Origin: a virus
Lineage: Duplodnaviria > Caudoviricetes
Reading direction: 5' to 3' (one strand)
Virus record (IMG/VR): IMGVR_UViG_3300028886_000001
Length of the DNA: 64,000 nt
Shown: positions 7,143 through 60,536 of the stretch, piece after piece
How the letters are laid out: the number at the start of each line of letters is the position of its first letter
How positions within the stretch are numbered: position 1 is the first letter of the stretch
The notes under the pieces: model-generated
What the model saw: only the letters and a program-made list of their open reading frames with translations
The model's database searches: none
Told to the model about the DNA's origin: nothing
Program-made: the position numbers and the translations under genes

Positions 7143-9335
7143 ATGGCAGAAGGAAATATGAACTTTGTTCAAGACATGGAAGAAGAAGCAAAAAGAATAA
7201 CAAGTTTAGAGCAAATGGCTGGAAAAGGATTGATGATGCCATTTAATCCATCAAATTCTGGTCCAAGAAAAATAATGCAATCAACCTTTGTAGAACATCT
7301 ATTATCATTAGAAAATCCAGAGCCACCATTAATTGGTACAGGTTATGAATTTAGATTTGGCGAACATTCTTCATCTTATAATATAGCTGAAGATGATTTT
7401 GCTATACTGCATAGAATAGAGAAGTTTAGTTTTGCACATGGTAATCATTATTTTCTAATTATTCAAAACCATAGGACAGGAGAATATGATGTTATTGAGA
7501 GAAAGTCTTATAAGTACATCGGAGAGTCTTATACCTATAGTTATAACAATTCTTATTTAGATAAGAAATCTGTAGGAGATGTTATACAGAAAGGAGATGT
7601 ATATCAGAAGAGTACTGCGTTTGATGAAAATAATAATAGGCAGGATGGTGTTAATCTTCTTACTGGATATATATCTTGCGAGCTTAATAAAGAAGATGGA
7701 GTCATAATATCTGAAACAGCTTCTAAGAAATTAGCAGCTCCTACAATGAAAATGGTAAATATCATTATTAATGATAATGATATACCAATAAACCTATATG
7801 GGGATGACAGTTGTTATAAATGTATGCCGAATGTAGGTGAGTATATTCAAAATGGAGTATTACTAGCGTTAAGAAGAAATAAGAAAGATGAAGCCTTATT
7901 CAGTCAGAGTAGAGAAAGACTAAGAGGAACATTCATCTCAGATGATCAATTCTTAGCACAAGGACAAGTAGTTGATATTGATATATATTGTAATAACCCA
8001 GAGTTATTAGCAACTTATGAATACAATGATCAACTAAGATATTATTATGATGATGATATGAGGTTTAGAAGAGAATTCAATTCTAAAGTAAGACCTTATA
8101 TCTTAGAAAGAAAGTGTAGTTATAGACTACAAAAGATATATTATAATAATGAAAAGATATTAAATGGAGGACAGTTTATAAGAGATGCTAAACCACCTTC
8201 TTTTGTATCACTTACATTATATGTAAAGGATGTAATAGATGCTAAACAAGGAGATAAAATAGCAAATAGATATGGAGGTAAAGGTGTTATATCTGTAGTA
8301 CTTCCAGATGAAATGATGCCTATGTTATCTAATGGAGAAAGGCTAGAATGTATACAAAATCCAGAGGGTTGTCCAAATAGAGAAAATCCAGGTCAGTTAT
8401 TTGAGCAAACTATAAATCAAGTTGGTTCTAGAATAATTGATTATATAGGAGAAGCCATATTACATCAAGATGAATGTCTAGAGCTATATCTAGAATATCT
8501 TAAAGAGGTATCTCCACAGCAATATATAGAGATAGTAAAGTATTTATCTGAATCAGATTTAACAGAAGATGATAAGCAATATTTATTAAATTCTGTTTTA
8601 GATGATAATGGAATAGCTGTATCTTTAAGACCTATTACAGATAATATGTCTTTAGATAAATTAGCATCTTTAATTCATAAGTTCCCATTTGCTAAGCCTT
8701 ATACTATTACTGTACCACAAAGAGATTCTAATGGTAATATAAGATATATCGAAGCTAGAAGACCAATAACCTGTGGTAGAATATATATGTATAGAATGAA
8801 GCAATATGCAGAAGAGAAATTCTCTGCTGTTAGTTTATCTGCTACTAATAATAAGAATGAGAATAGCAGAACTTCTAAGAAGAACTTTAAATCTATATAT
8901 GCTAAAACACCTATAAAGTTTGGAGAAATGGAGTCAGGAGACTTATCTCATATGGGTGTAGAGAATGTAATAACTGGTTTGATGCTGTATTCTGCATCAC
9001 CTTGGGGAAGACGTTTAACTGAAGAACTTATAACAGGAGACCCATTTGATGTAGACGTTAAATTAGATGATAGATCTAGAAATAGATCAGTAGAGATTCT
9101 TAATGCATATCTTACTACTATAGGATTAAAGTTAGATTTTGAGAAAGTTCCTAAGATAAAGAAAAAGATATGGAAGAGAAAAATACTTACTTTCCATAAA
9201 TCACCAGAGAATATTGGTAAGAAGAAGAAAGTATGGCATAAACTAAATGCTTGGGAAAAACCAGATATGAGTCTTGTTAAGGGAGACGGGAAGCTTCATA
9301 TTTGGAAGAAATCTGTATTTAAACATAAGAGGTAG
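7143..9335 (+). CDS. Non-virion RNA polymerase beta subunit, C-terminal half
   Basis: NKEDG, GDKIANRYGGKGVIS, NPEGCPNRENPGQLFE, YMYRMKQ, PIKFGEMES. Confidence 0.9.
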   Translation: MAEGNMNFVQDMEEEAKRITSLEQMAGKGLMMPFNPSNSGPRKIMQSTFVEHLLSLENPEPPLIGTGYEFRFGEHSSSYNIAEDDFAILHRIEKFSFAHGNHYFLIIQNHRTGEYDVIERKSYKYIGESYTYSYNNSYLDKKSVGDVIQKGDVYQKSTAFDENNNRQDGVNLLTGYISCELNKEDGVIISETASKKLAAPTMKMVNIIINDNDIPINLYGDDSCYKCMPNVGEYIQNGVLLALRRNKKDEALFSQSRERLRGTFISDDQFLAQGQVVDIDIYCNNPELLATYEYNDQLRYYYDDDMRFRREFNSKVRPYILERKCSYRLQKIYYNNEKILNGGQFIRDAKPPSFVSLTLYVKDVIDAKQGDKIANRYGGKGVISVVLPDEMMPMLSNGERLECIQNPEGCPNRENPGQLFEQTINQVGSRIIDYIGEAILHQDECLELYLEYLKEVSPQQYIEIVKYLSESDLTEDDKQYLLNSVLDDNGIAVSLRPITDNMSLDKLASLIHKFPFAKPYTITVPQRDSNGNIRYIEARRPITCGRIYMYRMKQYAEEKFSAVSLSATNNKNENSRTSKKNFKSIYAKTPIKFGEMESGDLSHMGVENVITGLMLYSASPWGRRLTEELITGDPFDVDVKLDDRSRNRSVEILNAYLTTIGLKLDFEKVPKIKKKIWKRKILTFHKSPENIGKKKKVWHKLNAWEKPDMSLVKGDGKLHIWKKSVFKHKR

Positions 9336-9345
9336 GTGAAAAAAT

Positions 9346-11625
9346 ATGGATGAAATGAGTTTTGTATGTAATATAAGAGATAGATTGCTGAAAGGCGATC
9401 TATCTTGTATTACATCAGAATCTATTAAAGATATAAATGATATTAGTATGAGATTTCTTAATGGAGAAGACAATCTAGCAGAAGTAGTAAGAGAGATTAT
9501 ATTGATATCTAATATATTATATAATAACACAGATAAATCTAGATTGCCTCTAGATGATGGGGTATATGATATATTATTAGAGAAGACTAAAAAATTCTGT
9601 GAAGTTCAAGTAGGAGCTCCTAATGTATACTTCGAACCATCAGAGCAAGAAAGATTCAACCTTAAGAAAGTATGGGTTCAAAAAGAGCCTATAAATACTG
9701 AAGGTATGATGTTTTATGAAGAGCTATCTCAAGCTCCAAAGCCTAATATGCTAAAAAAGATATGGAATAAATATCACGAGATACCTGTAAGAAGAGTAGG
9801 AGATGCTGTTCATCCTTATCCAGAATTAGCTGGTACTTTGGATAAGTGTAAGTTTGTATTAAATAAAGATGCAGTAGAAAAAGGAGTCTTTGAAGATAGT
9901 AATGTAAAAGTATTAGAAAGAGATTTCTTTGGAGCAAATATTATGAATGGGATACTAGATCCTAATAGAGTATATAATATGGACTTAGAATTAAAATATG
10001 ATGGTGTATCTGTAGAAGCAGATGTATCTAATCGTATAATATCAGCAAGAAGTAGAGGAGATGCTAATAAAGGAATAGCTACAGATTTAACTCCTCTTTT
10101 AGAAGGATACAGATTTAGAAATGCTGAAGGTAAAGTAGATGATAATGATGTATTCGGAATGCAGTTTGAAGCTGTAATGTCTTATTTCAATTTACAAGTA
10201 TTCAATGAAATGAAAGGGATACAGTATAAGAACTGTAGAACTGCTATATCTGCATTATTCTCATCTACAGATGCTCTAAAGTATAGAGATTTAATAACTC
10301 TAGTACCAATAAGAACTAGTTTAGGTATAGGTAGACAAGAAGAGGTAGAGTTTATAAATAAGTATTATAATAATGGAGAGTATCTAAGACATGTATTTAT
10401 CAAAGGTACATTATCTCAATTATTGTATTCTATCTATATATTTTCTAAAGATGCAGAATATTTAAGACCTTATATGCCATTTATGTATGATGGTATTGTT
10501 GTATCATTTATGGATGAAGATGTTATAGAAAGACTAGGTAGAGTGTCTAATGTAAATCAATATCAGATGGCAGTAAAGTTTAATCCTTTAAAGAGACTTA
10601 CAATCTTTAGAGGGTATGATTATACTATAGGACAAAATGGTAAGGTTACTCCAATGATTCACTATGATCCAGTAGAGTTTTATGGTACAATACATGATAA
10701 GTCAACTGGTCATTCTTATAAGAGATTCAAGGAATTGGATTTAAGATATGGAGATATAATAGAAGTAGAATATGTAAATGATGTTATGCCTTATGTATCT
10801 AAACCAATGAATAGCGAAAATCAACAGAATGCAGTAAATCCACCAATACCATTTATAGATACATGTCCATCTTGTGGAAGTAAATTAGTTATATCTGATT
10901 CTGGTAAGGAAGTCTTATGTATTAATAAAGAATGCCCTGCTAGGAATATTAAGAGAATAGCTTCTCTTATGGCTAAACTTAATCTTAAGGACTTCTCTGA
11001 AGCTCAAATAGCTAAGATAGGAAAATATAGTTTATCTGAGATGCTTAGTTGTACTAAAGAAGATGTAGAGTTCTTAGGAGATATAACTAGTGATAAATTC
11101 ATAGAAAGAATGAATTATATAAAGACAGCTCCAATATATGATTATAATCTTATAGGAGCTTTGGGTTTTGAAGATATAGCTGTGGAGAAGTGGAAACTTA
11201 TCTTACATCAATATAGCTTATTGGATTTATATAATATGTATCTATCTAATCCAGAACAACTAAAGTTAGACCTTACTAAGATAAAAGGTATTGGCCCTAA
11301 GATATCAGAGACAATAGTATCTGAGATGGAATTCTTTATGAAGGATATACAATATATATTACAAATGAATAATATAATAATATCTAAAGGAATGAAACTT
11401 GGGAAGAAGATAAGATTTACTGGTGTTAGAGATTCAGAATTAGTAAAAGTATTATTAGACAGAGGACATTCTGCAGGGGAAGGTGCTATAACTAAAGATA
11501 CAGATATTCTTATAGTACCAGATGTAAATCATGTAAGTTCAAAGACTAAGAAAGCAGTACAATATGGAATTCAAATTGTACCATTACAAGAGTTCATAGA
11601 GAATATGGATTCATACTTAAAGTAA
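9346..11625 (+). CDS. ligA: NAD-dependent DNA ligase
   Basis: D..YD domain Ia, ELKYDG adenylation motif, SRGD, DGIVV, AVKF, CPSC...C...C zinc finger, HhH, C-terminal BRCT. Confidence 0.92.
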   Translation: MDEMSFVCNIRDRLLKGDLSCITSESIKDINDISMRFLNGEDNLAEVVREIILISNILYNNTDKSRLPLDDGVYDILLEKTKKFCEVQVGAPNVYFEPSEQERFNLKKVWVQKEPINTEGMMFYEELSQAPKPNMLKKIWNKYHEIPVRRVGDAVHPYPELAGTLDKCKFVLNKDAVEKGVFEDSNVKVLERDFFGANIMNGILDPNRVYNMDLELKYDGVSVEADVSNRIISARSRGDANKGIATDLTPLLEGYRFRNAEGKVDDNDVFGMQFEAVMSYFNLQVFNEMKGIQYKNCRTAISALFSSTDALKYRDLITLVPIRTSLGIGRQEEVEFINKYYNNGEYLRHVFIKGTLSQLLYSIYIFSKDAEYLRPYMPFMYDGIVVSFMDEDVIERLGRVSNVNQYQMAVKFNPLKRLTIFRGYDYTIGQNGKVTPMIHYDPVEFYGTIHDKSTGHSYKRFKELDLRYGDIIEVEYVNDVMPYVSKPMNSENQQNAVNPPIPFIDTCPSCGSKLVISDSGKEVLCINKECPARNIKRIASLMAKLNLKDFSEAQIAKIGKYSLSEMLSCTKEDVEFLGDITSDKFIERMNYIKTAPIYDYNLIGALGFEDIAVEKWKLILHQYSLLDLYNMYLSNPEQLKLDLTKIKGIGPKISETIVSEMEFFMKDIQYILQMNNIIISKGMKLGKKIRFTGVRDSELVKVLLDRGHSAGEGAITKDTDILIVPDVNHVSSKTKKAVQYGIQIVPLQEFIENMDSYLK

Positions 11626-12385: not shown

Positions 12386-13036
12386 GTGAGAAATATTATG
12401 AAAAAGATCTTTATAAACGATGAAGTCTATGATGTAGTAGAGCCAGAGGCTTATTACAGTAATAAAAAGTACTATGAAAAATCCAATGTAGCTATAGAAA
12501 AGGATGGTATAGTATATCCTATTATACCTAAATATTCTAAAGAACCTGGTGCAGTAGATAAAACTGTATGGTTGGAATTTAGAGATCCACCAGAAGAAGA
12601 GAAAGATAAATATTCTACAAATAATATACTAGATTTTGGAGCAGCTAAAGACTTAGCAGATATATATAAATTAAATGAAGAATATTCTGCTATAGAAAGA
12701 AGAATAATGACAGACCCAGAAGATAACTTTAAGCCACCTGTTTCTAAACAAGATTCTCCAGAAATGATGGCTTTAAAACAAGCAGTTAGTGATAAGAATA
12801 TAAATATAAAAGCTTATGAGAGAAGGTTTGGACCTACTTATGAGAATGATATAAGAATATTTAATGGTCATAAAATCACTTTAAGAAAGTTAAGAGAGAT
12901 GTGTAATGCATTAGACATTCAAGCTAAATTAACTTTATGCGATATATCTCCTGATGTAGAGAATCCTATGGGCACTGAAATAACTGTTAATATTACAGGA
13001 AAGGGGAAAGATCCAAATGAGGGTAACTCAATCTGA
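12386..13036 (+). CDS. Hypothetical protein with possible HTH in the C-terminal half
   Basis: ITLRKLREMCNALDI resembles the end of a Cro/XRE-type HTH. Overlaps the RNAP beta-N gene. Confidence 0.55.
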   Translation: MRNIMKKIFINDEVYDVVEPEAYYSNKKYYEKSNVAIEKDGIVYPIIPKYSKEPGAVDKTVWLEFRDPPEEEKDKYSTNNILDFGAAKDLADIYKLNEEYSAIERRIMTDPEDNFKPPVSKQDSPEMMALKQAVSDKNINIKAYERRFGPTYENDIRIFNGHKITLRKLREMCNALDIQAKLTLCDISPDVENPMGTEITVNITGKGKDPNEGNSI

Positions 13037-14774
13037 ATTAATCAAAAGATACAATGATGAAAACCGAGAACAATTTAATCCTAAATTGTTTGAACGTAGT
13101 GATGACAAGTTAATAGAAGCTTTAGAAACAGCTATATTATCTTGCCAAAGAGAACAGAATTTTACTATAAAGGTGCAAAGCTTCACAGTAATAAAAGAAT
13201 ACTCAGCAATAATGGGTATTATGAAGTATTATGAAGATAAGCATGGACGTAATAGAAGAAAAAGAAAGGTCAATCAATATGATTATGTAGATCTTAAAGA
13301 TTCTGATGTTATACTTCTAGTAGTTACTTATCTTATAGGAGCTAAAGATCAATGGAAGACATTAACTTCATATATCTTAGTACCTATAGTTGTAGAGAAG
13401 TATTACTATAAGATATTTGGGAATATGTATTCTTCAATATATCAAATAGTAGATGGTTCTGTTTATAATAATTCTTTAAAAGCAAATAGGAAATATCCAG
13501 CTGTGATAATGAAAACATTGTCACATCCTGTTAATATAAAGAGAACTAAGTATAAATTAAATACTATGGATGGAAGTATTTTAGAAGTAAATAATTATGA
13601 AGTATTAGTATTTAGAAAGAACTTTGGTATAATGAAGTACTTCCTTGCTAAGTATGGTATATATGATGTATTATATTTCTTAGGACTAAAGTATATAAAT
13701 TATAGCTATACTGATGTAAAAGATGATAGTTTATATACATTCAAATTAGGTAGTATATTTATAACAGTTCCTAAGATACTATTTGATAATGATAAAGTAA
13801 CTCAATCATTCATATATACTATGGTTACAGAGACTGCAGGTTCTTATGACATAGATGATATAGCTAGAAGAGAATTCTGGTTAAAGAAACTAGGAAAAGA
13901 ATTTGGTAGCCCAGTACCTGAAAAAGGTATATCTATTCTTAATTCATTAGAAGCTATAAGAGATATCAATACAGTAAATGAATTAGGTATACCTTTAGAA
14001 TATAAATATGATATATATTGTATTCTAAGATGGATTATAAGAGAATTTGATACATTAAAGAATAGAGATGGATTAGATTTGAAGTATAAGAGAATAAGAC
14101 TAGAAGAAGTTATAGCTTCATTATATACTTTGAAACTAAATAAATCTATATATATGCTATCAGATTTAGGAAGTAAAGTTACTGTAGATAAGATAGAGAA
14201 GTTTATAAGAACAAGACCTACTTATCTAATAGAAGCTATATGCAAATGTAATCTATCTAGTTATAGAAACCTTGTAAATGATTTAGATGCTATAACAGCA
14301 TTGAAATATACTTATAAAGGTGAAGGTGGAATAACAACTCCACAAATTCAATATAGACATGTACATCCTTCTCATATAGGAAGAGTTGATCCAGATTCAT
14401 CAACTAAATCTGATCCAGGTATGAGTGGTGTATTATGCCCATTAGTAGAAACTTATAATGGTCATTTTAGTAATTTTAAAGAACCAAATGAATGGGAGGC
14501 TAATTATGCTAATTTATTAGCTATGTATGAACAAGATCATCATCCAATGAAGCGTATATTCCATTATAATGAAAAACAATTATTTGGATTTAAAGAAGTT
14601 CTTGAAAGGCATAATAGAGATTTAGAATTACTAAAACCAGTAGAAAGAAAAGTTGTTTTCAAGAGAACAGAAAATACTAATAGATACTGGGAAGAAGAAG
14701 ACTATATTGAGCAAATAAGAAAACAGAATAATGAATATTTGAAACATCAGGAGGTAAAGAAAGATGAGTGTTAA
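13017..14774 (+). CDS. Non-virion RNA polymerase beta subunit, N-terminal half
   Basis: [26 protein letters not shown] corresponds to beta [35 protein letters not shown] corresponds to INGTERVIVSQL. Confidence 0.85.
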   Translation: [585 protein letters not shown]

Positions 14775-14985
14775 ATATTATTATATGTTTTCTGATAGAC
14801 AATGCAAAGAGAAGACACAAATGAATAAAATTAATAAGAATATAGCAGTAACAGATAAAGTACTTGTCAATGGGAATTGGCAGTACTATACTGCTAGAAT
14901 AACAGAATCAAATGTAGATAATTATCTTAAGCGTTATTCTGATGCTAAAGTAGTTTTAATATCAGATAATGCTAGAGTACTTTAA
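14764..14985 (+). CDS. Hypothetical protein
   Basis: 73 aa, SD GGAGG, overlapping the upstream stop. Confidence 0.6.
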   Translation: MSVKYYYMFSDRQCKEKTQMNKINKNIAVTDKVLVNGNWQYYTARITESNVDNYLKRYSDAKVVLISDNARVL

Positions 14986-14998
14986 GGAGGTAATACTT

Positions 14999-15274
14999 AT
15001 GATTAAAGTAATGACTCCTATAGATTATAATGATATAAGATGTCCTATATGTAAAGGACATCTTTATTATACTAAATCTAATATGACAGCAACTAAAGCA
15101 GATAATTCTGGAATACTTTCAGATACTCCAGATTGTTCTGTAAGTAAAGAAAATGTAAGATGCCAAAGATGTGGAGATGTATCTGCATTTTTTATAGCAT
15201 TAAATGGAAGAATATTCTATAGAAATGCTGTATCTATTCCATATAAAGATACAGATAATCCATTCGGTAAATAA
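14999..15274 (+). CDS. Zinc-ribbon protein
   Basis: CPIC...CQRC. Start moved to ATG 14999 after SD AAGGAGG. Confidence 0.65.
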   Translation: MIKVMTPIDYNDIRCPICKGHLYYTKSNMTATKADNSGILSDTPDCSVSKENVRCQRCGDVSAFFIALNGRIFYRNAVSIPYKDTDNPFGK

Positions 15275-15937: not shown

Positions 15938-16394
15938 TATAGGATTTAATTCTAGATTATTATTTAATATAGCAGAAGAGGATAAGAGTTTTATAAAGAA
16001 TACTTTTAACTTTACCTCTCAATATGATAATTGTAAATTATTTGTATTGGTTACTGATAAAGATAAGAGTATTAAAGAAGTAAAACAAGCTATACGTGAT
16101 TTAGGTATTAATACAGATTCATATAAACTAGTAGATACTGATAATATAAAAGAAGCTATAAAGCATTATAATATAGTACAATATGTAGATACTAGAATAA
16201 ATGAAGATGTTAAAGATATAGATTCTTTAAATAAGATAGTATTATCTAAACTATTAGAGTCTAATACAGAAATAACAGTATTGAAAAACTGGATGCAAAT
16301 ATTTACATTATTGAATATGATAGTAGTTACAGATGCTTATCCTAATAGAGAAGGTGTTAAAGATGCTAAAGATATGGAAAGTTCAAAGATATGA
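15930..16394 (+). CDS. Hypothetical protein
   Basis: 154-aa ORF, translationally coupled. Confidence 0.6.
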   Translation: MINIGFNSRLLFNIAEEDKSFIKNTFNFTSQYDNCKLFVLVTDKDKSIKEVKQAIRDLGINTDSYKLVDTDNIKEAIKHYNIVQYVDTRINEDVKDIDSLNKIVLSKLLESNTEITVLKNWMQIFTLLNMIVVTDAYPNREGVKDAKDMESSKI

Positions 16395-16665
16395 TACATG
16401 TCACAATTGTAATGAACCTAGAGCTATAGAATGCTATGATGAATATGATGAACCTATAAGATATAGTATCTTATTAGATAAGTATCTTAAAGGGAAAGAT
16501 ATATCAGAAATAATAAACTCTAGAGTATTTACCATTATGAAGTGTTGTAAATGTGGAAAAGTTTATTGTATAGATTGGACTGGTGACTTTCCTAGACCAT
16601 TAACTAATCCAATGAAGTTAGATTGGTTCCTGTTAAACTATTATAATAATAACAATATATTGTAA
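16363..16665 (+). CDS. Zinc-finger protein
   Basis: CHNC...CCKC. Probable start MLKIWK after GAAGGTG. Confidence 0.6.
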   Translation: MLKIWKVQRYDTCHNCNEPRAIECYDEYDEPIRYSILLDKYLKGKDISEIINSRVFTIMKCCKCGKVYCIDWTGDFPRPLTNPMKLDWFLLNYYNNNNIL

Positions 16666-20790: not shown

Positions 20791-21738
20791 TTAATACTCA
20801 TTCATACTATTATTATTCAATACTACTAATTGATATGTAGTATCTAAGTCTGTATTTCTTGCTATTTGATTTCTTATATCTATTGTAGTATTCTCTAAGA
20901 ACATAGCGTCTGGTTTATCTACATTAGGAATACTTTCTCCTGTAGTAGTATCTATTACATCAAACCATCTATTTCCTGTACTAGCATCATATACTACTAC
21001 TGTTTTTACATTAGGATTGGACTCTAATCTCATCATATTTTGAGATGGATTTAAAGGTTCTTGTATATCATTTCCTATACCTACTGGAAGCATATTTATA
21101 CTACCAGATTGAAGAGTCATATCTTGTGTGTTAAAACCTAAAGGATTTCCTCCTCCACCAATAGGAGTATTAATAAATGCTTGATACATATCCATAATTT
21201 TCTTATCTTCATCTTGAGATGTAGCAGCTGACATTCTAAGATCCTTTAATCTCTTCATTTCTAAATTATGACAATCTGTCATAACTTTATTCATTTCTCT
21301 TATGGCTGATACTTTTGTACTAATAAGAGTACTAGCTGTAGAAGATATCTCTGATATATAATCATACTTCTTTTTTAATGTCTTAGATGATCTTATAGTA
21401 GTTAAATCTGTTTGTAAATCATTTTGCATCATATCTATTTGATTCACAGATCCCTTAAGCATATTATTAGTTTCAGCATAAGTATCTAAATATGGCTTAT
21501 TAGATTCAGCCATAGATAATTCTCTATCTGACTTTTCTACTTCTAAGAAATCATTCGCATTATCTAATTTCTTCTTTCTTGGTCTACCTCTTTTTTTCTT
21601 TTCTTCTATTGGTCCTGCAGTACTTACAACACCAACATCTTCATTCTGTAAAGACTTTGCATGTTTTAAAAAACCACCAGAGTTTCCTAGAGTAACTTCA
21701 GGTTCTGGAGATTCTTCTCTGTTAAATACTTTTTTCAT
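20791..21738 (-). CDS. Hypothetical protein with AT-hook-like motif and coiled coil
   Basis: KKKRGRPRKKK near the N-terminus. SD GGGAGG and late-type promoter at 21763-21774. Confidence 0.7.
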   Translation of the reverse strand: MKKVFNREESPEPEVTLGNSGGFLKHAKSLQNEDVGVVSTAGPIEEKKKRGRPRKKKLDNANDFLEVEKSDRELSMAESNKPYLDTYAETNNMLKGSVNQIDMMQNDLQTDLTTIRSSKTLKKKYDYISEISSTASTLISTKVSAIREMNKVMTDCHNLEMKRLKDLRMSAATSQDEDKKIMDMYQAFINTPIGGGGNPLGFNTQDMTLQSGSINMLPVGIGNDIQEPLNPSQNMMRLESNPNVKTVVVYDASTGNRWFDVIDTTTGESIPNVDKPDAMFLENTTIDIRNQIARNTDLDTTYQLVVLNNNSMNEY

Positions 21739-24051: not shown

Positions 24052-26007
24052 ATGTTAAAAAGATTTCCAATAGGTTCAGATGTAACTTTAATGAATACAT
24101 TATACACATATCCAAAAAGAGATGATGAAACTGGTAAATGGGACAAAGGTTCTATGACACTTATATATAAAGATAATACTACTGGTAAGAAATATACAGA
24201 ATGTATAGAAGATCCAGATTATGAATTTTATATACAAGATACTAAATATCTAGAAAATAATGAATTCTTCTATGATAAGAAAGACTTGAAGATGATAAAG
24301 ACACCATTTAGAGAATTAGAAAAGACTATAGCTAAATTAACTAATAATGAAAATTTCTATAATAATAATGTAAAGAGTGGACAAAGAAGAGATAATAAGA
24401 AACTACATCTAGTGCACTCAGTATTTAATTCAGATATGAATATAGAAGATCATTATAGATTTAGATTTGATAAATTATATGAGAATGAAATAACTCCTAT
24501 ATCTAAATTCTATTTCGATATAGAAGCAGATACTATAAATATGGTTGGAGACTTTCCAGAACCAGGAGAGTGTCCAGTAAATGCAGTATCTACTATAGAT
24601 GATAGTACTAAGACTATTAAAGTATTCTTATTAAGAAATAAGAATAATCCATTGATAAATCAATTTGAGAAAGACATACAGACTGAAGAAATGTATAATG
24701 AACTAATAGAGTTTATTAAATATGCTGTTGGTGGATACAAACAATTTATCCGATTCGGATTAGATAAATTTCATGTAGAGTTTAAATTCTATGATGAAGA
24801 ATTAGAAATAGAACTTCTATATGATTTATTCTATTATATCAATACAATACAACCAGATTTTGCATTAGCATGGAATATGGCATTCGATATTCCATATCTT
24901 ATGGCAAGAATAGAAAACCTTGGAGGAGATCCAAAAGAATTCTTATGTCATCCAGACTTTGAAAATAAGATGTGTGAATATTATATAGATGAAAGGCATA
25001 AGAATGAATTTGCTGAAAGAGGGGATAGAGCTTATATATCATCATATACAGTATATCTTGATCAAATGATACACTTTGCATCAAGAAGAAAAGGTCAATC
25101 AGCATTTCAATCATTTGGATTAGATTACATAGGAGAAACAGTAACGCATGTAAGAAAGCTAGACTATTCTCATATTACTACTCAATTAGCTAAATTACCA
25201 TATTTAGATTATAAGACATTCGTATTCTATAATATAATGGATACTATAGTACAAAAATGTATAGAAGTTAAGACTGGTGATATAGACTATGTATTTAGTA
25301 AATGTATGGTTAATAATACTAGATATGATAAATGTCATAGGCAAACAGTATACTTAGTTAATAGAGCTACTAAAGAATTTAATAAGTCTGGTTTAGTTAT
25401 AGGTAATAATACTAATAAATTTAATGATAAGCCTACAGAAAAATTCCCTGGAGCTTTTGTAGCAGATCCTAGAAAGTTAAAAGATAATGCTAAGATGAGT
25501 ATTAATGGAGTAAAAGTTAATCTATTAAATAATCTAGACGATTATGATTATAAATCACTTTATCCTAGTATAATGAGAGAATTTAATACTGCTCCTAATA
25601 CTCAAATAGGTAGAGTGTATATAGATCAAAAAGTATATGATAAAGAAAATCCTTTTGATAATCCATACTATGTGAGAGGTGGAGCATTCTTAGAAGATTT
25701 ACAATGCGGGGTATATTTAGAATTCTGTAAGAGATGGTTACACTTAGCAGGATATGGAGATCTATATAAAGATGTATTAGATTATGCAAATAATATTAAA
25801 CCTTCAATGAAGATGCCTAGAAACTTTACTAGAGATGGAAAGATTAAGGTATTAAGATATCTTCCTAAAGGAAGTAAGAAGAAAGTAATGTCTAAACTTA
25901 GAGAGGGTGAAAAGATTAAAGTATGGCATTATTATAAGAAACCAGAGAACTTTGACATTATACTAAATACAATACCAAGAACAGGAGTTGTTTTCAATGA
26001 TTATTAA
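24052..26007 (+). CDS. Split family B DNA polymerase, N-terminal subunit (3'-5' exonuclease plus motif A)
   Basis: ExoI FDIEA, ExoII AWNMAFDIPY, ExoIII YNIMD, FPGAFV, motif A DYKSLYPSIM. Confidence 0.9.
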   Translation: MLKRFPIGSDVTLMNTLYTYPKRDDETGKWDKGSMTLIYKDNTTGKKYTECIEDPDYEFYIQDTKYLENNEFFYDKKDLKMIKTPFRELEKTIAKLTNNENFYNNNVKSGQRRDNKKLHLVHSVFNSDMNIEDHYRFRFDKLYENEITPISKFYFDIEADTINMVGDFPEPGECPVNAVSTIDDSTKTIKVFLLRNKNNPLINQFEKDIQTEEMYNELIEFIKYAVGGYKQFIRFGLDKFHVEFKFYDEELEIELLYDLFYYINTIQPDFALAWNMAFDIPYLMARIENLGGDPKEFLCHPDFENKMCEYYIDERHKNEFAERGDRAYISSYTVYLDQMIHFASRRKGQSAFQSFGLDYIGETVTHVRKLDYSHITTQLAKLPYLDYKTFVFYNIMDTIVQKCIEVKTGDIDYVFSKCMVNNTRYDKCHRQTVYLVNRATKEFNKSGLVIGNNTNKFNDKPTEKFPGAFVADPRKLKDNAKMSINGVKVNLLNNLDDYDYKSLYPSIMREFNTAPNTQIGRVYIDQKVYDKENPFDNPYYVRGGAFLEDLQCGVYLEFCKRWLHLAGYGDLYKDVLDYANNIKPSMKMPRNFTRDGKIKVLRYLPKGSKKKVMSKLREGEKIKVWHYYKKPENFDIILNTIPRTGVVFNDY

Positions 26008-26596
26008 TAAAGAAGAGTTATTATATCTACAAGACTCTGCAAAGATATTAAAGGCTAATTATATAATGGTAGATAATAATTGTATATATGGTTCAGACGA
26101 TGGACTCATATTCTTAAGAAGAATAATTATAGAGAATACTACTAATATAAGTCTATTATGCATATCATATAAAGACTTTGTTGCTTTTATAAAAGAAATA
26201 GATATAGGAGATACTATAACATTAGATGATAATGTACTATATTCTAACTCTAATAACTATGTATACTGTAATAATATAGATAAGATATATAGATTTAGAG
26301 AGATGATGAACTCTGTAAATGAGTCTATATTTAACTGTATATGTCATGAAGATAATTTAAAAGAGATCGATAGATTTAATGATATTTTAGCACAGAAGAG
26401 TGCAGATGGAATGACTATATTAAATATAGCAAATAATCTATTATCTATATATAGTAATATGCTTCCAGTAGTAAAATCTGATACTGTAGAATTAAACGTA
26501 TATAACTATAGGGTAGGTACAATATTAGTCCATTTTATTATTCATAAGAAAAAAAATATAAATGTGGACATATATATTCCATATAAAATATTATAA
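25988..26596 (+). CDS. Hypothetical protein coupled to DNA polymerase (possible accessory factor)
   Basis: Overlaps the polymerase stop. About 200 aa with a mixed alpha/beta pattern. Confidence 0.55.
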   Translation: MFSMIINKEELLYLQDSAKILKANYIMVDNNCIYGSDDGLIFLRRIIIENTTNISLLCISYKDFVAFIKEIDIGDTITLDDNVLYSNSNNYVYCNNIDKIYRFREMMNSVNESIFNCICHEDNLKEIDRFNDILAQKSADGMTILNIANNLLSIYSNMLPVVKSDTVELNVYNYRVGTILVHFIIHKKKNINVDIYIPYKIL

Positions 26597-45156: not shown

Positions 45157-47256
45157 TTATAGTTTTACTATATTAGAGTAATTGTTATTATTGTTTATAG
45201 TATATAAACCTATAGAATCTAATGGGAATAATTTAAGATTATCATTTATTATAGTAGTATAATTTATGAAGTTTACTAACCACTTAGGTATTTCTACATT
45301 TCTAGGTACAGCTACTACATCTATACTACTAGTAAATGGTTTATTCTCCATAAGTTTTATACACTTATCTCTTATTTCTGGATCTTCTATTTGATTTATA
45401 TTATTCTTATTAATATCTATCTTTAATATATCTAATCCATTTCTTGCTTCTAAATCTATAGGTTCTAAATCTCCTCTTATTTCATTCCAAACTATAGCAC
45501 CTTTTATACCTTGAATTCTCATTGGGTCTTCATAAGCACCATAGCTTTTAATTCTAGTTGGTTTGTAGAATGTCTTTTCTCCTTTTTGAAGAGATTGATA
45601 TATTTCTTTCTCAAACTTAGATAATTCTTTTAATACCTTTACCTGGTCTACGTAATCACAGTTAAGTACGTCATTATAAAGTATCTCTTCTAATTTTTCA
45701 CGAGTTCGCTTATTAGTCCCACTCTTACGTAGCGGTAATCCTTTAATATCTAATGCTGTTCCTATATTATCTTCTATTATATTACCTTCTTGAAGTTCTT
45801 GTCTAGAAGCATAATTCTTACGAGCATCAGTAAGTAATAATCTCTTAAATTGGAATTCATTCTTCATATATATAAAGCAAGGTTTTTCTTCACTATATGA
45901 GAAACTATGTTTAGTATAATCAATCATATAGTCATTTATAATATTGCCTAAACAATATGCCATTATATTTACTATAGAATATCTTAGTCCTTCATGAGGT
46001 ATTACATGCATAACATCTAATCCTTTTTCTACCTGAACTAATTCATCATTATAGAAATCGTAATCATATTCATCTTCTATTTTACGCATTACTATATTAG
46101 GCTCTATTCTATCTCCGAATTCATCTCTTGCTAATACTTTCCATACTTTTATTTTACCATGTTTTATAGGCATATCTATATTAGCAACTCTATCATACAT
46201 GTATCTAAACCATCCATCAAAGCTAGCAAAAAGACTATCAGTATCAGTTACAATACATGCTTCTCTATACATATTACTATATCTATCCATTCTATCTATT
46301 ATCTGATGACCATAATATACATATTCTTTTAATAAAGAATAGAATTCATTTAAGTCATCTTTAATTTCTGGATTTACATCATTAGGACTTAGGAACGGAG
46401 TATTTAGTTCTTTAAGCATCTTAATGACTAAATTATTAGGAATAGCATTATCTACAAATGAATATAAGTTATTTTTATAGTATAATCTATTAATATCTTC
46501 TTGATGTAATTCACATATTATTTCCCATACTATATATAAATCATCTTCACTTGGTATATATCCATTCCAACCACAATTAATCATTATTTTATAGAAACAT
46601 TCTGCTCTATCTATATCTTCATCTAATACGTTTCTATCATCATATTTTCTATTAGGCTTCTCTTCTATTACATTGTGTATAAAAGTAATAATCTCATCTA
46701 AAGAACCAAATTTGACATTATTACACATAAACATTTCTACCTGTGTAGCCGCAGAAGATATTAAAGATCTTCCTTGTGTAGTAACAGAAGCCGCTACATA
46801 TAAATTATATAATAAACAAGCATAATTTCCGCAAGCACCATATATTCCGTTACAATCTATCTTATCTAGTAATTGCAATAAATTATACTTTTCAAACATC
46901 TCACTACCCTTAGGGTATTTGAACATTTCTTTCTTATGGATATTTCTATTATCCATAAATACACCAATCATTTGTGCTAGAGGATTAGGCACTTCAGCGT
47001 GCTTCTTAAACATAACTCCATATGGAGTTATGATAGGTTCTCTAGACAAAATATAATTAGCTAAATCTAATAGAGTGGTATCTATTCTCTTATCTTTATA
47101 ATTATTATGAATATATGCTGGACCATTCTTCATTCTCTTAATAATAGAATGATCTACAGCATCATTAATTTCTTCATACGTCATATTTGGAAATGACATA
47201 TGAAGCATCGGTAATACAGTTTCTTTATACTTAAGTATAATTTGACTATTATCCAT
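45157..47256 (-). CDS. Split family B DNA polymerase, C-terminal subunit (motifs B and C)
   Basis: Motif B QLLDKIDCNGIYG, SVTTQGR, motif C DTDSLF, KNE, RKNYA, IKGL. Confidence 0.9.
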   Translation of the reverse strand: MDNSQIILKYKETVLPMLHMSFPNMTYEEINDAVDHSIIKRMKNGPAYIHNNYKDKRIDTTLLDLANYILSREPIITPYGVMFKKHAEVPNPLAQMIGVFMDNRNIHKKEMFKYPKGSEMFEKYNLLQLLDKIDCNGIYGACGNYACLLYNLYVAASVTTQGRSLISSAATQVEMFMCNNVKFGSLDEIITFIHNVIEEKPNRKYDDRNVLDEDIDRAECFYKIMINCGWNGYIPSEDDLYIVWEIICELHQEDINRLYYKNNLYSFVDNAIPNNLVIKMLKELNTPFLSPNDVNPEIKDDLNEFYSLLKEYVYYGHQIIDRMDRYSNMYREACIVTDTDSLFASFDGWFRYMYDRVANIDMPIKHGKIKVWKVLARDEFGDRIEPNIVMRKIEDEYDYDFYNDELVQVEKGLDVMHVIPHEGLRYSIVNIMAYCLGNIINDYMIDYTKHSFSYSEEKPCFIYMKNEFQFKRLLLTDARKNYASRQELQEGNIIEDNIGTALDIKGLPLRKSGTNKRTREKLEEILYNDVLNCDYVDQVKVLKELSKFEKEIYQSLQKGEKTFYKPTRIKSYGAYEDPMRIQGIKGAIVWNEIRGDLEPIDLEARNGLDILKIDINKNNINQIEDPEIRDKCIKLMENKPFTSSIDVVAVPRNVEIPKWLVNFINYTTIINDNLKLFPLDSIGLYTINNNNNYSNIVKL

Positions 47257-53715: not shown

Positions 53716-55839
53716 GTGATATATAAAGTGTTTTACTTAGAGAATTATGGCGATTATTCAGAGTTAATAAAGAACAAGCATATTACTATTGATATGAAAA
53801 CTATCAATAGAAATACTTGGCAGATGCATTATCAATCATTATTAAATATAATGAAAGATGGAATTGAAACTGAGTATATGAGACATCCAATCATTACATT
53901 ACATTTTGATGTAATAGATGTAGATATGGCTATACCAGATGTATGGTTTAATATGATGCTATGGTATGTATTAGTAGCAGTAGATAAAGAAATTAGACCA
54001 TGTGATATAGTATTTGAAGAAGATGGTACTACTGGTAATACTATAAAAAGATTTATGGATGATAAGTTCATAGATAATTATAGAACTATGATTGATAATG
54101 TCCAAATGAATAATATAATAGATGATTGTATGTATACATTTAGACATATAGATGATTTTAGTTTCTATATAGCAAATACTGTATCATTAGATGACTTTGT
54201 AGAATTAATGGATAAGAATCCAGAATTCTATGATCTAATGCATGCAGATTTATCTCATTTACCAATAGATCAAGTTAAGATAGAAGGTACTAAACTAGCA
54301 AATCGTTCTATTGAAATAATAAAGAACTCTGATCATTGTATGTCTAATTACTTTTTAGCAGGTGAAGGTATCAATCCAAAACAATATAAAGAATTAGCTA
54401 TACATATAGGTCCTAAACCTAATGGATTAGGAGGTGTATTCCCTACTATAATAAATCATAGTTATATAAATGGTGGGGTTAAAGATCCAATGGATTATGC
54501 TATAGAAGCTAGTACAGGAAGATTAGCACAGATTATAGTAGAAGGCAATGTTGGTACTGCAGGTGACTTTGCTAGATTATTAGGATTGAATTGTATGGAT
54601 ACTACATTACACAAAGATCCTAATTATATATGTGATACTAAACATTTCCAAGAAGTAACTATAACTGAAAGAACTTTTAAGTTATTCTTAAATAGATATT
54701 TCAGATTTAGAAAAGATGGATTGGAATATAAGATTACTAAGAAGATGAAGAAAGATCTTATAGGAAAAACTATACTTCTAAGAAGTCCAATGACTTGTGC
54801 TTCCGCTGCTAGAGGAGAAGGAATATGTTATAGATGTTATGGTGATTTAGCATATACTAATAAAGATATAAATCCAGGAAGATTATCTAGTGAAGAATTA
54901 TCATCTAGATTTACTCAAATGATGTTATCTGCTAAGCATTTATTAGAAGCATCTATAAGAAAGATTATATGGAGCAAAGACTTCTGGAAATATTTCGATG
55001 TAGAGTATAATATAATAACTTTAAAAGATGATTTTGACTATACTGGATATAGTATAAAGATCAATTTAGAAGATATTACATTAGAAAGAGATACAGAAGA
55101 AATTTCAGAAGGTCAATATAATGAATATATAACTTCATTTAAATTAATCTGTCCAGACGGAGACGAAATAGTATGTAATACAGCTAATGCAGATAATCTA
55201 TATATAGCTAATTCTATAAGCTCAGTTATGCAAGAATACGAAAAATCAACAAAAAAGCTTAAAGGAGTATATTCTGACGGAGAAGATATTATTATAAATC
55301 TAAATTTAATTCAAGAAAGAGACGGAATATTATTTGTAATGAATATCTTAAATAGTGATTTATCTTCTAATCTAAAGAGAGTTAAAGATATAATCAATAA
55401 GATAGAGATTACAAAGAATCTATCTAGACATGAATTATTAGAAAAGTTTAATGAAGGATTATTAGATAGTAAGATTAATCTTCAATCTGTTCATGCTGAA
55501 GTTATATTGATGAATCAGATGCGTAATGATGAGGATATTTTAGGAATGCCTAAATGGGAAAATCAAAATCCTCATTATCAGATCTTAACATTGATGCAAT
55601 CATTAGAGAACATACCTTATGTAACTAAGAGATTAAGTTATGCTAAAACAGCACAAGCATTAAGATCGCCTGTTACTTATAGATGCGAAAAACCATCTGC
55701 TATGGATGTATTCTATATGATAAATCCTCAGAAGTATATTAATAGTAAGATAGTTCCTGCTAAAGAACCAGAGTATGCTGAAAAAGGATTAAGAAAGATC
55801 TGGAATAAGATTGATAAAAATAAAGAAGAAGACGAATAA
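53716..55839 (+). CDS. Non-virion RNA polymerase beta' subunit, C-terminal part
   Basis: Bridge helix GRLAQI...VGTAGDFARLL, LRSPMTC...GICYRCYG zinc site, trigger loop FTQMMLSAKH, VHAEVIL. No DxDGD, so the catalytic piece lies outside the window. Early motif at 53652-53664. Confidence 0.88.
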   Translation: MIYKVFYLENYGDYSELIKNKHITIDMKTINRNTWQMHYQSLLNIMKDGIETEYMRHPIITLHFDVIDVDMAIPDVWFNMMLWYVLVAVDKEIRPCDIVFEEDGTTGNTIKRFMDDKFIDNYRTMIDNVQMNNIIDDCMYTFRHIDDFSFYIANTVSLDDFVELMDKNPEFYDLMHADLSHLPIDQVKIEGTKLANRSIEIIKNSDHCMSNYFLAGEGINPKQYKELAIHIGPKPNGLGGVFPTIINHSYINGGVKDPMDYAIEASTGRLAQIIVEGNVGTAGDFARLLGLNCMDTTLHKDPNYICDTKHFQEVTITERTFKLFLNRYFRFRKDGLEYKITKKMKKDLIGKTILLRSPMTCASAARGEGICYRCYGDLAYTNKDINPGRLSSEELSSRFTQMMLSAKHLLEASIRKIIWSKDFWKYFDVEYNIITLKDDFDYTGYSIKINLEDITLERDTEEISEGQYNEYITSFKLICPDGDEIVCNTANADNLYIANSISSVMQEYEKSTKKLKGVYSDGEDIIINLNLIQERDGILFVMNILNSDLSSNLKRVKDIINKIEITKNLSRHELLEKFNEGLLDSKINLQSVHAEVILMNQMRNDEDILGMPKWENQNPHYQILTLMQSLENIPYVTKRLSYAKTAQALRSPVTYRCEKPSAMDVFYMINPQKYINSKIVPAKEPEYAEKGLRKIWNKIDKNKEEDE

Positions 55840-57830: not shown

Positions 57831-57976
57831 AATAAAGGGTGGTAAAACACCCTTTATTTTTTCTATGTTACACTATGCCATTGTATAGTATTTTAATTAT
57901 ATATTATTATCTTGTCATAATACATATATGTATATATCCTGAAGTATACATAAATAAAATAATGGAGGTGATTATT

Positions 57977-58828
57977 ATGACAAATTTAAAGATAAACGAC
58001 ATCAAGGAAATGACCGAAGTGTTTACACATGGGGGTGTATTCCATGCAGACGATGTATTTTCATCTGCATTGTTATTATTAATCAATCCAGACTTAAAAG
58101 CCATCATCAGAGGATTTAAAGTCCCTGATGGCTTTTCTGGATTAGTATTTGACATCGGTGGTGGTGAGTTTGACCACCACCAACCTGATGCTGAAAGAAG
58201 ACCAGATGGCAGTAAGTATGCTGCCTTCGGTCTTCTTTGGAAGGCTTTAGGTAGTCAAATCGTCGATGAAGTTGGAGCTAAAATCATCGACGAATCGATT
58301 GTAGCTCCAATTGATCACACAGATAATGGCGAATCTGATGTGGTCAATCCGTTGGCAGTAAGCATCTCTATGATGAACTGTCAATGGGATGAACCTAATA
58401 GCAATGATAATTTCTTAGAAGCTGTGGAAATAGCTAAGAAGATTTTATCTTCTGCTATTAAGGCTCAATTGTCTAGAGCAAAGGCTAAAGAAATTGTTCT
58501 TAGTGCCTTTGCCCAATCTGATGACGGAAAAATTGTAGTACTAGATAAGTTCTGCCCATGGCAGGATGTTCTAGTAAATACTACTGCCGAAGTAGTAATC
58601 TTTCCAAGTTTAAGAGGAGGATACAACGCTCAAGTTGTGCCAGTTAAACCTGGCTCATTTACTGCCAAGGTATCCTTCCCTGAATCTTGGGCTGGACTTA
58701 CTGGTGGTGACTTGGTATCTGCTAGTGGTATAGAAGGTTTGACCTTCTGTCATGCTGGTAGGTTCTTAGTAGCTGGTGCTACTAAGGAAGCAGTTATTAA
58801 TGCTGCTAAGTTAATCATCAGTAAGTAA
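57977..58828 (+). CDS. MYG1 family (UPF0160) DHH-superfamily exonuclease
   Basis: THGGVFHADDV, DIGGGEFDHHQ, FGLLWK, ID..DNG, FCHAGRF. Start moved to 57977 after SD GGAGGTG. Confidence 0.88.
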   Translation: MTNLKINDIKEMTEVFTHGGVFHADDVFSSALLLLINPDLKAIIRGFKVPDGFSGLVFDIGGGEFDHHQPDAERRPDGSKYAAFGLLWKALGSQIVDEVGAKIIDESIVAPIDHTDNGESDVVNPLAVSISMMNCQWDEPNSNDNFLEAVEIAKKILSSAIKAQLSRAKAKEIVLSAFAQSDDGKIVVLDKFCPWQDVLVNTTAEVVIFPSLRGGYNAQVVPVKPGSFTAKVSFPESWAGLTGGDLVSASGIEGLTFCHAGRFLVAGATKEAVINAAKLIISK

Positions 58829-58895
58829 AATAATAAGAGGGATTCGCCACCCTCTTATTATTTTTTTGTATGTACCTTAACACATTAATAAAGGA

Positions 58896-60536
58896 GTGAT
58901 AAAGCTTATGGAAAATTATAAAATTGTGGTTAAGCATACATCAATAATTATTAATGATTACGAATGGGGAGATAATAAAAAACTAGAGAACTATTTCTCT
59001 GTATATAATCCTGTGACTCATTCATGTTTTTATAAGGGATTAGAATATGACGAAGTAAATAAACGATTAATATTACCAAGAGGATTAGATGTTTATTTTT
59101 TGGAGAACGAATTTAATACTAAAGCATATATAGATAGAAAGTATGATGAATGTGATAATGTAGATTTAATAAAGATAAAATATAAACCTAGGGATGAAGT
59201 ACAAAGAGAGTCATTAAACTTTATGTCTGGTAGTACTGCTCAATATAGAAACAATAGATATTACTCTCAATTATCTTTAAATCTTAATACAGGTAAAGGT
59301 AAGACATATTGTTCTATCGCTAATGCGGCGGCATATTCATTAAGAAGTATTATAATTACATCTACTGTCGGTTGGTTAGAACAATGGAGAGATTGTATAT
59401 TAGAATATACTGATGTAAAACCTAGAGAAATATACTTTATAGAAGGATCTCCTTCTATACATAGATTATTAAAGAGAGATATATCTCAATATAAATTTAT
59501 ATTGGTTACTCATGCTACATTAAGATCATATGGAGAAAATCAAGGGTGGGATAAGATAACAGAGTTATTCAAATATCTTAGAGTTGGTATAAAGTATTAT
59601 GATGAAGCACATAGAGATTTTGATAATATATGTAGAATAGATTTCCATACTAATACCTATAAGACATACTATATAACAGCTACTCCATTAAAGAGTGATG
59701 AAGCAGAGAACTTTATATATCAGATGTATTTAAAGAATGTACCTTCTATAAACCTATTTGATGAAAATAATGACCCTCATACTAAGTATATAGCTATACA
59801 ATATACATCAAAGCCTACTCCATTAGAAATATCTAAATGTAGAAATCAATATGGATTAGATAGAAATAGATATACTAATTATCTAGTAAGAAAAGAGAAT
59901 CCATATAAAGTATTGATGATATTATTAGAGATGCTTATTAATAAACCTGGGAAGATATTAATCTATATAGGAGTAAATGATGCTATAGAAGTAGTAAGAG
60001 AATGGATAGTGAGTACATATCCTTATTTAGAACCTCATATAGGAGTATATAATAGTCTAGTAAAAGATAATAAAGAACAACAATTAGAAAAGAAGATAAT
60101 ATTATCTACCACTAAATCATGTGGTGCGGCTGTAGATATTAAAGGATTGAAATCTACTATAGTATTTGCAGAACCATTTAAATCAGAAGTATTAGCAAGA
60201 CAAACTCTAGGTAGAACTAGAGATCCTAATACCTATTATTATGATATGGTAGATATGGGATTTAATCAGACTAAGAAATACTATTATCAGAAGTTACCTA
60301 TATTTAATAAGTATGCTACAGAATGTTCTAATATAAAACTATCTCCTAATCAATTAGATGAGCAAATAGACCTTATTAATAGAAGTAGAGAATATCCATT
60401 TAAAAGAAAGATATGGTTGAGATTACCTAAAGATGAAATTGATATAAATAATCCATACTTTGGAGATAGATATAGAAATACTCTAAAGAAACAAGTTATA
60501 TGGCATAAGTGCGATGAAAATAAAAATCTAAAATAA
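58896..60536 (+). CDS. SF2 DEAH helicase (UvsW-like)
   Basis: TGKGKT, DEAH, TAT, QTLGRTR. Confidence 0.88.
   Translation: MIKLMENYKIVVKHTSIIINDYEWGDNKKLENYFSVYNPVTHSCFYKGLEYDEVNKRLILPRGLDVYFLENEFNTKAYIDRKYDECDNVDLIKIKYKPRDEVQRESLNFMSGSTAQYRNNRYYSQLSLNLNTGKGKTYCSIANAAAYSLRSIIITSTVGWLEQWRDCILEYTDVKPREIYFIEGSPSIHRLLKRDISQYKFILVTHATLRSYGENQGWDKITELFKYLRVGIKYYDEAHRDFDNICRIDFHTNTYKTYYITATPLKSDEAENFIYQMYLKNVPSINLFDENNDPHTKYIAIQYTSKPTPLEISKCRNQYGLDRNRYTNYLVRKENPYKVLMILLEMLINKPGKILIYIGVNDAIEVVREWIVSTYPYLEPHIGVYNSLVKDNKEQQLEKKIILSTTKSCGAAVDIKGLKSTIVFAEPFKSEVLARQTLGRTRDPNTYYYDMVDMGFNQTKKYYYQKLPIFNKYATECSNIKLSPNQLDEQIDLINRSREYPFKRKIWLRLPKDEIDINNPYFGDRYRNTLKKQVIWHKCDENKNLK

Follow-up and report, generated by a model that had tools for sequence, protein, structure and literature searches.

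Genes and tag copies in the window

The window, a stretch of 64,000 nucleotides, was part of the complete 213-kb genome of an uncultured AR9-like phage from the animal gut. A short word, K-[IV]-W, recurred in it on replication and transcription enzymes (Table 1). The peptides listed in the earlier note were all in frame and correctly placed, and its identification of nvRNAP beta-C, NAD ligase, nvRNAP beta-N, PolB-N, PolB-C, nvRNAP beta'-C and SF2 helicase was borne out.

Table 1. Genes, tag copies and other features of the window (p values are for concordance of the protein family)
Feature	Position	Strand	Details
nvRNAP beta-C gene	7143-9335		
nvRNAP beta-C added tail	9159..9332	+	Three copies: 9159-9179, 9222-9242, 9291-9311
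nvRNAP beta-C tail, weaker fourth copy	9309-9323	+	
NAD ligase (LigA) gene	9346-11625		
LigA linker, two copies	9661..9771	+	9661-9684, 9751-9771; p = 0.001
nvRNAP beta-N gene	13017-14774		
nvRNAP beta-N tail, two Phe variants	14547..14666	+	Held-out p = 3.5e-4
Small zinc-finger protein, N-terminal tag	16363..16386	+	ORF 16333-16665; held-out p = 0.002, 8 genomes
315-aa conserved protein	20791..21738	-	N-terminal tag variant 21721-21738; p = 5e-5
PolB-N gene	24052-26007		
PolB-N added tail, three copies	25840..25932	+	25840-25860, 25876-25896, 25912-25932; p = 0.004
Predicted two-domain DNA-clamp-fold protein, about 199 aa	25997..26596	+	Candidate tag reader; start overlaps PolB-N stop
PolB-C gene	45157-47256	-	
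PolB-C loop tag following motif C	46135..46158	-	Held-out p = 5e-5
nvRNAP beta'-C gene	53716-55839		
nvRNAP beta'-C tail tag	55789..55809	+	p = 1e-4
SF2 helicase gene	58896-60536		
SF2 helicase added tail, two copies	60402..60509	+	p = 5e-5
244-aa conserved protein	62029..62763	+	Family N-terminally tagged in relatives, p = 0.0015; no clear tag here

K[IV]W matched 19 times in the 205 ORFs of the whole genome, above the background of 300 per-protein shuffles (4.6 ± 2.2, maximum 12), and 0 to 11 times in 12 other genomes. Comparison with AR9 placed most of the sites in added or lengthened tails or loops, absent or shorter in AR9, as had been proposed. The proposed absence of the tag from virion proteins did not hold for the bare tripeptide, which had five virion carriers outside the window (major capsid, virion RNAP beta'-N, tape measure and two paralogous virion proteins) and for which the comparison of DNA-acting with virion proteins gave a Fisher p of 0.054. 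It did hold for a longer basic form, a pattern picked post hoc from the matches (7 of 21 DNA-acting against 0 of 35 virion proteins; p = 5e-4).

Carriers had one to five copies, many of them a single one. The beta-C tail was not present in AR9, and most of 120 beta-C homologues had tails of repeated words; the SF2 helicase tails were restricted to closer homologues, and PolB-N of AR9, SA1, BpSp and phiR1-37 terminated without the added tail. The 315-aa protein, a newly recognised carrier, combined a disordered extension bearing a basic AT-hook-like patch with a helical hairpin and a small beta domain. Shorter proteins of related structure occurred in AR9 and probably in phiR1-37, and a fold search matched generic helical hairpins only; that it is a small terminase is a guess. 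Carriers beyond the window were the sigma-like nvRNAP subunit and SbcD (N-termini), DnaB (C-terminus) and two proteins of unknown function.

Concerted respelling across relatives

At these positions, 11 related genomes carried other words (NPFIH, PFTI, IAER, VMC, LFHK), each common within its genome. Relatives at 55-60% identity had K-[IV]-M instead of K-[IV]-W, so that the Lys/Trp chemistry, by which the earlier note described the tag, is the spelling of one lineage. The conserved feature was the position together with the sharing of a word within a genome, and the clade-wide motif was approximately (G)-x-x-x-h-h-x-h, which about 12-15 non-virion proteins acting on DNA or RNA carried on added loops or termini. 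The convergent acquisition proposed there, taken as a recent gain in the studied phage, was contradicted: across the clade the tails occupied homologous positions, and they had been rewritten together.

Concordance was tested with a motif trained, genome by genome, on the RNAP beta-C tail alone and then applied to the other proteins of the same genome. It was significant for SF2 helicase and DnaB (both p = 5e-5), beta'-C (p = 1e-4), LigA (p = 1e-3), PolB-N (p = 4e-3), sigma (p = 5e-3), beta-N (p = 6e-3) and PolB-C (p = 9e-3). Refining the motif brought 12 of 95 held-out families, RNase H among them, past a 5% false-discovery cut; the refined motif additionally flagged SbcD, HNH nucleases and several unknown proteins, which the tag word, as an annotation tool, marks as DNA-transaction factors. 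Among the 95 families it gave no signal in portal, capsid, terminase or the four virion-RNAP pieces, nor in RecA, SbcC, primase, Dda or both topoisomerase subunits. The resolvase had no tag.

Synonymous codon identity between tag copies was 0.573 in the studied genome (0.553 expected) and close to background in most genomes, except for an excess in one genome (0.63 against 0.53). Selection thus acts on the peptide, and the motif was concentrated in the coding frame. Both the free synonymous positions and this frame preference argue against a translated DNA or RNA element. Together with a membrane anchor and a host-protease degron, such an element is a very remote and largely refuted explanation. 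Lys-Trp patches can bind anionic membranes, and the tags were close to gene ends; against these, the words that relatives carried at the corresponding sites were of different chemistry. The K-[IV]-M word in relatives speaks against membrane anchoring and against a fixed host partner of any kind, and a conserved host partner would be incompatible with respelling in each lineage.

The core of the earlier proposal, a multivalent short linear motif by which unrelated enzymes bind one hub, was strongly supported by the concerted respelling in 12 genomes. Very probably a single site on one partner encoded by the phage receives all copies: no explanation but a common reader that itself changes accounts for the joint rewriting of a dozen genes. 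With several copies, a client could still bind while its spelling drifted, and the peptide would probably be bound as an extended strand. It is highly unlikely that the tags are instead homotypic stickers, pairing as in-register beta strands and condensing the enzymes on DNA with no separate reader. Stickers would account for identity within a genome and for multiple copies without a co-varying reader, none having been found, and the hydrophobic residues do alternate; the tags of the studied genome were however strongly basic (mean +2 per site) and would repel each other, many relatives had Pro at the core, and many carriers had a single copy.

The set of carriers also bears on a role in localisation. 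A linear address label for a chimallin-free DNA compartment or scaffold, read by a shell pore, an import factor or a DNA-bound organiser, is an unlikely explanation of the tag. Its private spelling would admit the phage's own enzymes and bar host and competitor proteins, and rapid lineage-private change fits such sorting of self from non-self. The carriers span nearly all DNA transactions, with sites at extreme termini like localisation signals; they include mobile HNH nucleases and the AT-hook-like protein, and a tubulin/FtsZ-family protein adjoined recA in 11 of 11 relatives. RecA, both topoisomerase subunits, Dda and the resolvase were nevertheless untagged, although a closed compartment would need them; the studied complete genome had lost the tubulin and retained the tags, and known phage nuclei import by surface features, not terminal signals (PMC13282480). 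Tubulin was rejected as the tag reader, being absent from the studied complete genome. That the label sorts enzymes into a chimallin-free compartment or a private DNA-bound hub, excluding host defence and differently spelled co-infecting relatives, is conceivable if rather doubtful; were it true, resident homing nucleases would have to copy the label for entry.

A predicted clamp-fold protein next to PolB-N

Structure prediction showed a DNA-clamp fold for the product of the gene coupled to PolB-N, whose longest ORF begins with TTG at 25988 (AF2 pLDDT 91.4). The model aligned with T4 gp45 (Z 10.9, rmsd 4.0, 180 residues aligned), with 9-1-1 and beta clamps (Z 10.7) and with UL42/UL44 (Z 7.1-7.3). 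The best 39 rows of the structure search were clamps or processivity factors throughout, and the next, unrelated row had Z 3.5; the second domain and the linker were atypical (rmsd about 4). Sequence searches with the protein gave no match in Pfam, PHROG or PDB. The family was found in 12 of 12 genomes, overlapped or directly followed PolB-N in 10 of these and lay near it at 166 of 190 PolB-N loci, and no natural PolB-clamp fusion occurred among the 190. In divergence it ranked fifth among about 100 core families (25%, against 47% for PolB), as expected for a continually changing reader.

The jumbo-phage group of the studied phage was reported to be without a classical sliding clamp (PMC7824862), and the present protein supplies a clamp-fold candidate for it. 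AR9, BpSp and SA1 had an ORF of similar size between PolB-N and portal and had no tails, so a clamp can probably exist without tags. Homology of these ORFs to the clamp family was undetectable by sequence (E = 0.12); they are probable counterparts by gene order and by the equal length of two unnamed BFVD matches (259 and 255 aa), the AR9 candidate being the ORF at 106726-107442. No AAA+ loader of the RFC/gp44 type was conserved, RecA, DnaB, Dda and SbcC being the only universal P-loop families, and a PF00004 search gave nothing above cut-off in 5 genomes (detected in 14 of 14 controls). No description of such a linear motif or of a clamp was found in the literature on AR9- and phiKZ-like phages.

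Of the hubs proposed in the earlier note, the clamp gained a concrete candidate and the other named ones did not. The chance is even that the clamp-fold protein is the tag-reading partner, in a toolbelt like that of T4 with a private spelling. In T4 the clients of gp45 are polymerase, ligase and a sigma-like factor; their terminal motifs are interchangeable (PMC2988020), and the ligase has its motif in a loop (PMC6212786). Here polymerase, ligase and transcription factor, the same client set, were all tagged on flexible ends. The protein would be bound to phage DNA, probably needing no loader, like UL42/UL44 of herpesviruses, and would serve polymerase, ligase, RNase H, helicases, SbcCD and the late RNA polymerase. 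Untagged proteins may be brought in by a tagged subunit, SbcC by SbcD, primase by DnaB and the other RNAP subunits by beta' N. The clamp reading predicts late transcription by the phage's own multi-subunit RNA polymerase that would be coupled through the clamp to replicating DNA, as with T4 gp45.

Co-variation across about 60 lineages, scanned with hand-assigned tag classes on an alignment of about 20% identity, showed no clamp column that tracked the size or class of tag residues more closely than in the PolB-core control (maximum |r| 0.40 against 0.46), and charge complementarity between clamp and tag was weak and not significant (r = -0.19); tags extracted automatically from PolB tails were noisy. 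Complex prediction for the clamp-fold protein and the beta-C tail scored 0.16 (mark 0.32; controls not folded) and weighs on neither side. Clamps do not usually have DnaB, SbcD, an SF2 helicase, three RNAP core subunits or small unknown proteins as clients, which counts against the clamp as reader, and several other universal fast-evolving families (e.g. 34795-35916) are possible readers.

That another DNA-binding hub, an SSB or a universal protein, reads the tag while the clamp-fold protein serves the polymerase only is distinctly unlikely. An SSB typically partners with helicases, SbcD, ligase and RNase H; the pace of evolution in several unfolded universal families matches that of the clamp, and a clamp-like ORF seems older than the tags. 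Known SSB hubs are however reversed, the SSB tail binding pockets of its clients; RNAP subunits are not SSB clients, and no such hub protein was identified.

Comparison with known systems

AR9/PBS1 and SA1 share the orthologous split PolB, five-subunit nvRNAP, LigA, SbcCD and DnaB in a similar gene order, but their orthologues are shorter and without tagged tails. The PicA/Imp1 import of Chimalliviridae (PMC13282480) likewise gathers DNA-acting phage proteins selectively in related jumbo phages; it relies on surface features, whereas the tag lies on termini or loops. Chimallin was not matched by phmmer, phrog_4795 or a 5-sequence profile among 64 families, a search that likewise missed its positive control (phiKZ gp68 against the sigma family); PicA/Imp1 was not matched either, at the same limited sensitivity.

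Herpesvirus UL42/UL44 (PMC10320598) share the clamp fold with the model of the present candidate; their ligand is a B-family polymerase tail and they need no loader, as would probably hold for the candidate. They are known mainly as polymerase partners, and the literature examined describes no genome-wide respelled client tag for them.

The clients of T4/RB69 gp45, the best structural match of the clamp-fold protein, resemble the tag carriers in that polymerase, ligase and late-transcription proteins all bear a single kind of short hydrophobic motif in flexible ends or loops: the C-termini of gp43, gp55 and gp33 (PMC2988020) and a ligase loop (PMC6212786). The T4 motifs are acidic-hydrophobic, single-copy and conserved across the family, whereas the present tag was lineage-private and multi-copy and, unlike in T4, also on RNAP core subunits, DnaB, SF2 helicase and SbcD. 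T4 has the gp44/62 loader, and none was found here.

The proposed toolbelt logic is shared with the PIP box of PCNA and QL[SD]LF of the bacterial beta clamp. The sequence pattern differs: the tags were h-h-x-h words with basic or neutral flanks and no acidic LDFL-type, QxxLxxFF or QL[SD]LF consensus. PIP-box and beta-clamp docking is also exploited by mobile elements, and the tagged HNH nucleases suggest a like use of the tag. The PIP box and QL[SD]LF have been conserved over very long times, and docking motifs in general, T4 clamp epitopes included, are known as conserved; here the whole code between hub and clients was rewritten, in step in about a dozen genes and dozens of times within one phage clade. 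Such respelling is a natural experiment in the co-evolution of multi-partner interfaces, and hints at conflict over access to phage DNA.

Genome and relatives

The window was the reverse strand of the first 64 kb of a complete virus record of 213,202 bases with direct terminal repeats, and near-identical DNA was contained in bovine and pig gut metagenomes. Orthologues in the Bacillus phage AR9 (split B-family polymerase, multi-subunit RNA polymerases, NAD ligase, SbcCD and DnaB) were at about 30% identity; no closer cultured phage was found. A large metagenomic clade was at 40-60% identity to the genes of this genome, and 11 related genomes were assembled and compared with it (12 in total).

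The K-[IV]-W tag

All of the peptides named in the earlier note were in frame at their positions. K[IV]W occurred 19 times in the 205 ORFs of the whole genome, compared with 4.6 ± 2.2 in shuffled controls. The proposed confinement of the tag to non-virion enzymes held for a longer basic form, a pattern chosen post hoc (7/21 DNA-acting non-virion versus 0/35 virion proteins). It did not hold for the bare tripeptide: five virion proteins encoded beyond the window contained it, so it is not diagnostic alone (DNA-acting versus virion proteins, p = 0.054). Additional carriers outside the window were the sigma-like subunit of the non-virion RNA polymerase, SbcD, DnaB and two unknown proteins. The tagged segments were additions, as had been proposed: AR9 beta-C, beta'-C, helicase and PolB-N ended soon after the conserved core, and the tail was missing from helicase homologues of less than about 39% identity. 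Two ORFs had possible weak variants at the N-terminus (Table); the family test for the 216-aa one was not significant (p = 0.09).

Synonymous codon identity among tag copies was 0.573 in this genome (expected 0.553), and synonymous codons were near background in most genomes, with an excess in one. Tag copies were enriched in the coding frame. Both results make a DNA repeat, operator or gene-conversion tract an unlikely source of the tag, and selection acts on the peptide.

Table. Coordinates of tag variants, candidate readers and neighbouring features
Feature	Position (strand)	Remarks
304-aa ORF	4256-5170	At the site of the tubulin's usual neighbour in relatives
recA	5257	
Possible weak tag variant	12401-12415	N-terminus of universal 216-aa ORF 12386-13036
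Possible weak tag variant	15002-15016	N-terminus of small zinc-finger ORF 14969-15274
Universal 315-aa carrier	20791-21738 (-)	Added disordered N-terminus with tag and AT-hook-like basic patch
Promoter-like sites (two)	23933, 23991	AAC[AT]-N6-TA, AR9 type, upstream of PolB-N
Clamp-fold ORF	25997-26596 (+)	Start overlaps PolB-N stop
Most divergent universal family	34795-35916 (-)	23% mean identity, no known family; possible alternative reader or assembly protein
MYG1-family exonuclease	57839-58828	PF03690, E = 3e-41; adjoins helicase; AR9 has a DHH phosphoesterase nearby
Probable AR9 counterpart of clamp-fold ORF	AR9 record 106726-107442, also L093:6727-7443 (-)	Unannotated, between PolB-N and portal
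Probable SA1 counterpart	L424:4177-4956	As for AR9
Probable BpSp counterpart	L425:4535-5302	As for AR9

Respelling across relatives

About three repeated sites were retained in the beta-C tail of most of 120 homologues, and the repeated word varied: K-[IV]-M in the nearest homologues, and PLF, PIxF, PFIH, AF[ST], MC and others farther away. Within a single genome, the beta-C word reappeared in the tails of PolB-N and beta-N and in the linker of the ligase. In a blind concordance test, a 5-residue motif learned per genome from the beta-C tail only was used to rank the orthologues of all other families. The cognate orthologue ranked near the top for SF2 helicase and DnaB (p = 5e-5), beta'-C (p = 1e-4), the 315-aa carrier (p = 3e-4), HNH nucleases and LigA (p = 1e-3), and PolB-N, sigma, beta-N and PolB-C (p = 4e-3 to 9e-3); permutation p-values are approximate throughout because the genomes are related, and virion families served as internal null. 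After refinement of the motifs on five families, a 5% false-discovery threshold was cleared by 12 of the 95 held out: SbcD, PolB-C, beta-N, beta'-C, sigma, RNase H, HNH, zinc finger and four unknowns. The threshold was missed by portal, capsid, terminase, virion RNAP pieces, GroEL, RecA, SbcC, primase, Dda and topoisomerase.

In most lineages the first PolB-N copy lay four residues past a semi-conserved Gly, and this gives every spelling one register, h-h-x-h (h, hydrophobic). On the PolB tree the word was stable inside subclades and changed many times between them, with some words recurrent. In the subclade of relatives G030, G026 and G028 the PolB-N tail was longer, built differently and had one copy, and the tag was lost from several usual carriers. 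HNH nucleases, free-standing and intron-type, had their own genome's tag at the N-terminus in G010, G016 and other relatives, which suggests that selfish elements copied the label; the HNH of the present genome (outside the window) had no clear tag.

The feature is thus real and larger than first described, a clade-wide, co-evolving docking code. The proposed motif serving one hub is strongly supported as a multi-client docking tag, and K-[IV]-W itself was only one dialect.

The tag might instead be an address for a phage DNA compartment, a reading with its own problems: RecA and topoisomerase were untagged, and searches for chimallin and PicA, of limited sensitivity, gave no match. A further problem was that a tubulin/FtsZ-family protein, encoded just upstream of recA in 11/11 relatives, was absent from the complete present genome. 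Beyond its N-terminus, the 315-aa carrier had a long helical hairpin and then a small beta domain, a layout that recalls small terminases or nucleoid proteins; its structural relatives were a 228-aa AR9 protein and a 301-aa protein, probably of phiR1-37.

Candidate reader

A word changing in a dozen genes at once would need a shared, co-changing partner, and such concerted change points to a phage-encoded one. Docking to a single phage-made partner is very probably the role of the tag, and the chances that this partner is the clamp-fold protein are about even. The ORF was found in 12/12 genomes, directly after PolB-N in 10 of them, and beside PolB-N in 166/190 further loci. Searches of Pfam, PHROGs and PDB with the sequence of its product gave no match, and the protein was the fifth most divergent among about 100 core families. 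The AlphaFold2 model (pLDDT 91.4, pTM 0.87) best matched T4 gp45 with ligase peptide (Z 10.9, rmsd 4.0, 180 residues). Other best matches were all DNA clamps (9-1-1, beta clamps, PCNA), herpesvirus processivity factors came next, and the first unrelated match was at Z 3.5. BFVD A0A8S5VGH1, an 881-aa phage 'DNA polymerase', weakly matched the model and could be a natural polymerase-clamp fusion; no fusion occurred in the 190 PolB-N loci.

A comparative review described the jumbo-phage group as having no classical sliding clamp (PMC7824862). No universal AAA+ clamp loader was found among the related genomes, so a clamp would depend either on direct DNA binding, as with herpesvirus UL42 and UL44 (PMC10320598), or on a loader taken from the host. 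DnaB, SbcD and RNAP core subunits would be unusual clamp clients, and in about 60 lineages no clamp column or charge patch followed the tag more closely than the control did, with low power at 20% identity. AR9, BpSp and SA1 had a syntenic ORF of similar size but no tails, so the tags probably arose after the clamp; gene order and agreement in BFVD lengths were the only grounds for taking these ORFs as probable counterparts.

Comparison with known systems

No paper describing the tag system was found. The closest known logic is that of T4 gp45: polymerase gp43 and the late-transcription proteins gp55 and gp33 dock on it through interchangeable motifs at their termini (PMC2988020), and the ligase does so through a loop (PMC6212786). 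Although the tag system fell outside the T4 clamp family in consensus and loader, and is therefore not classed as a member, it resembles the T4 clamp toolbelt in its working.
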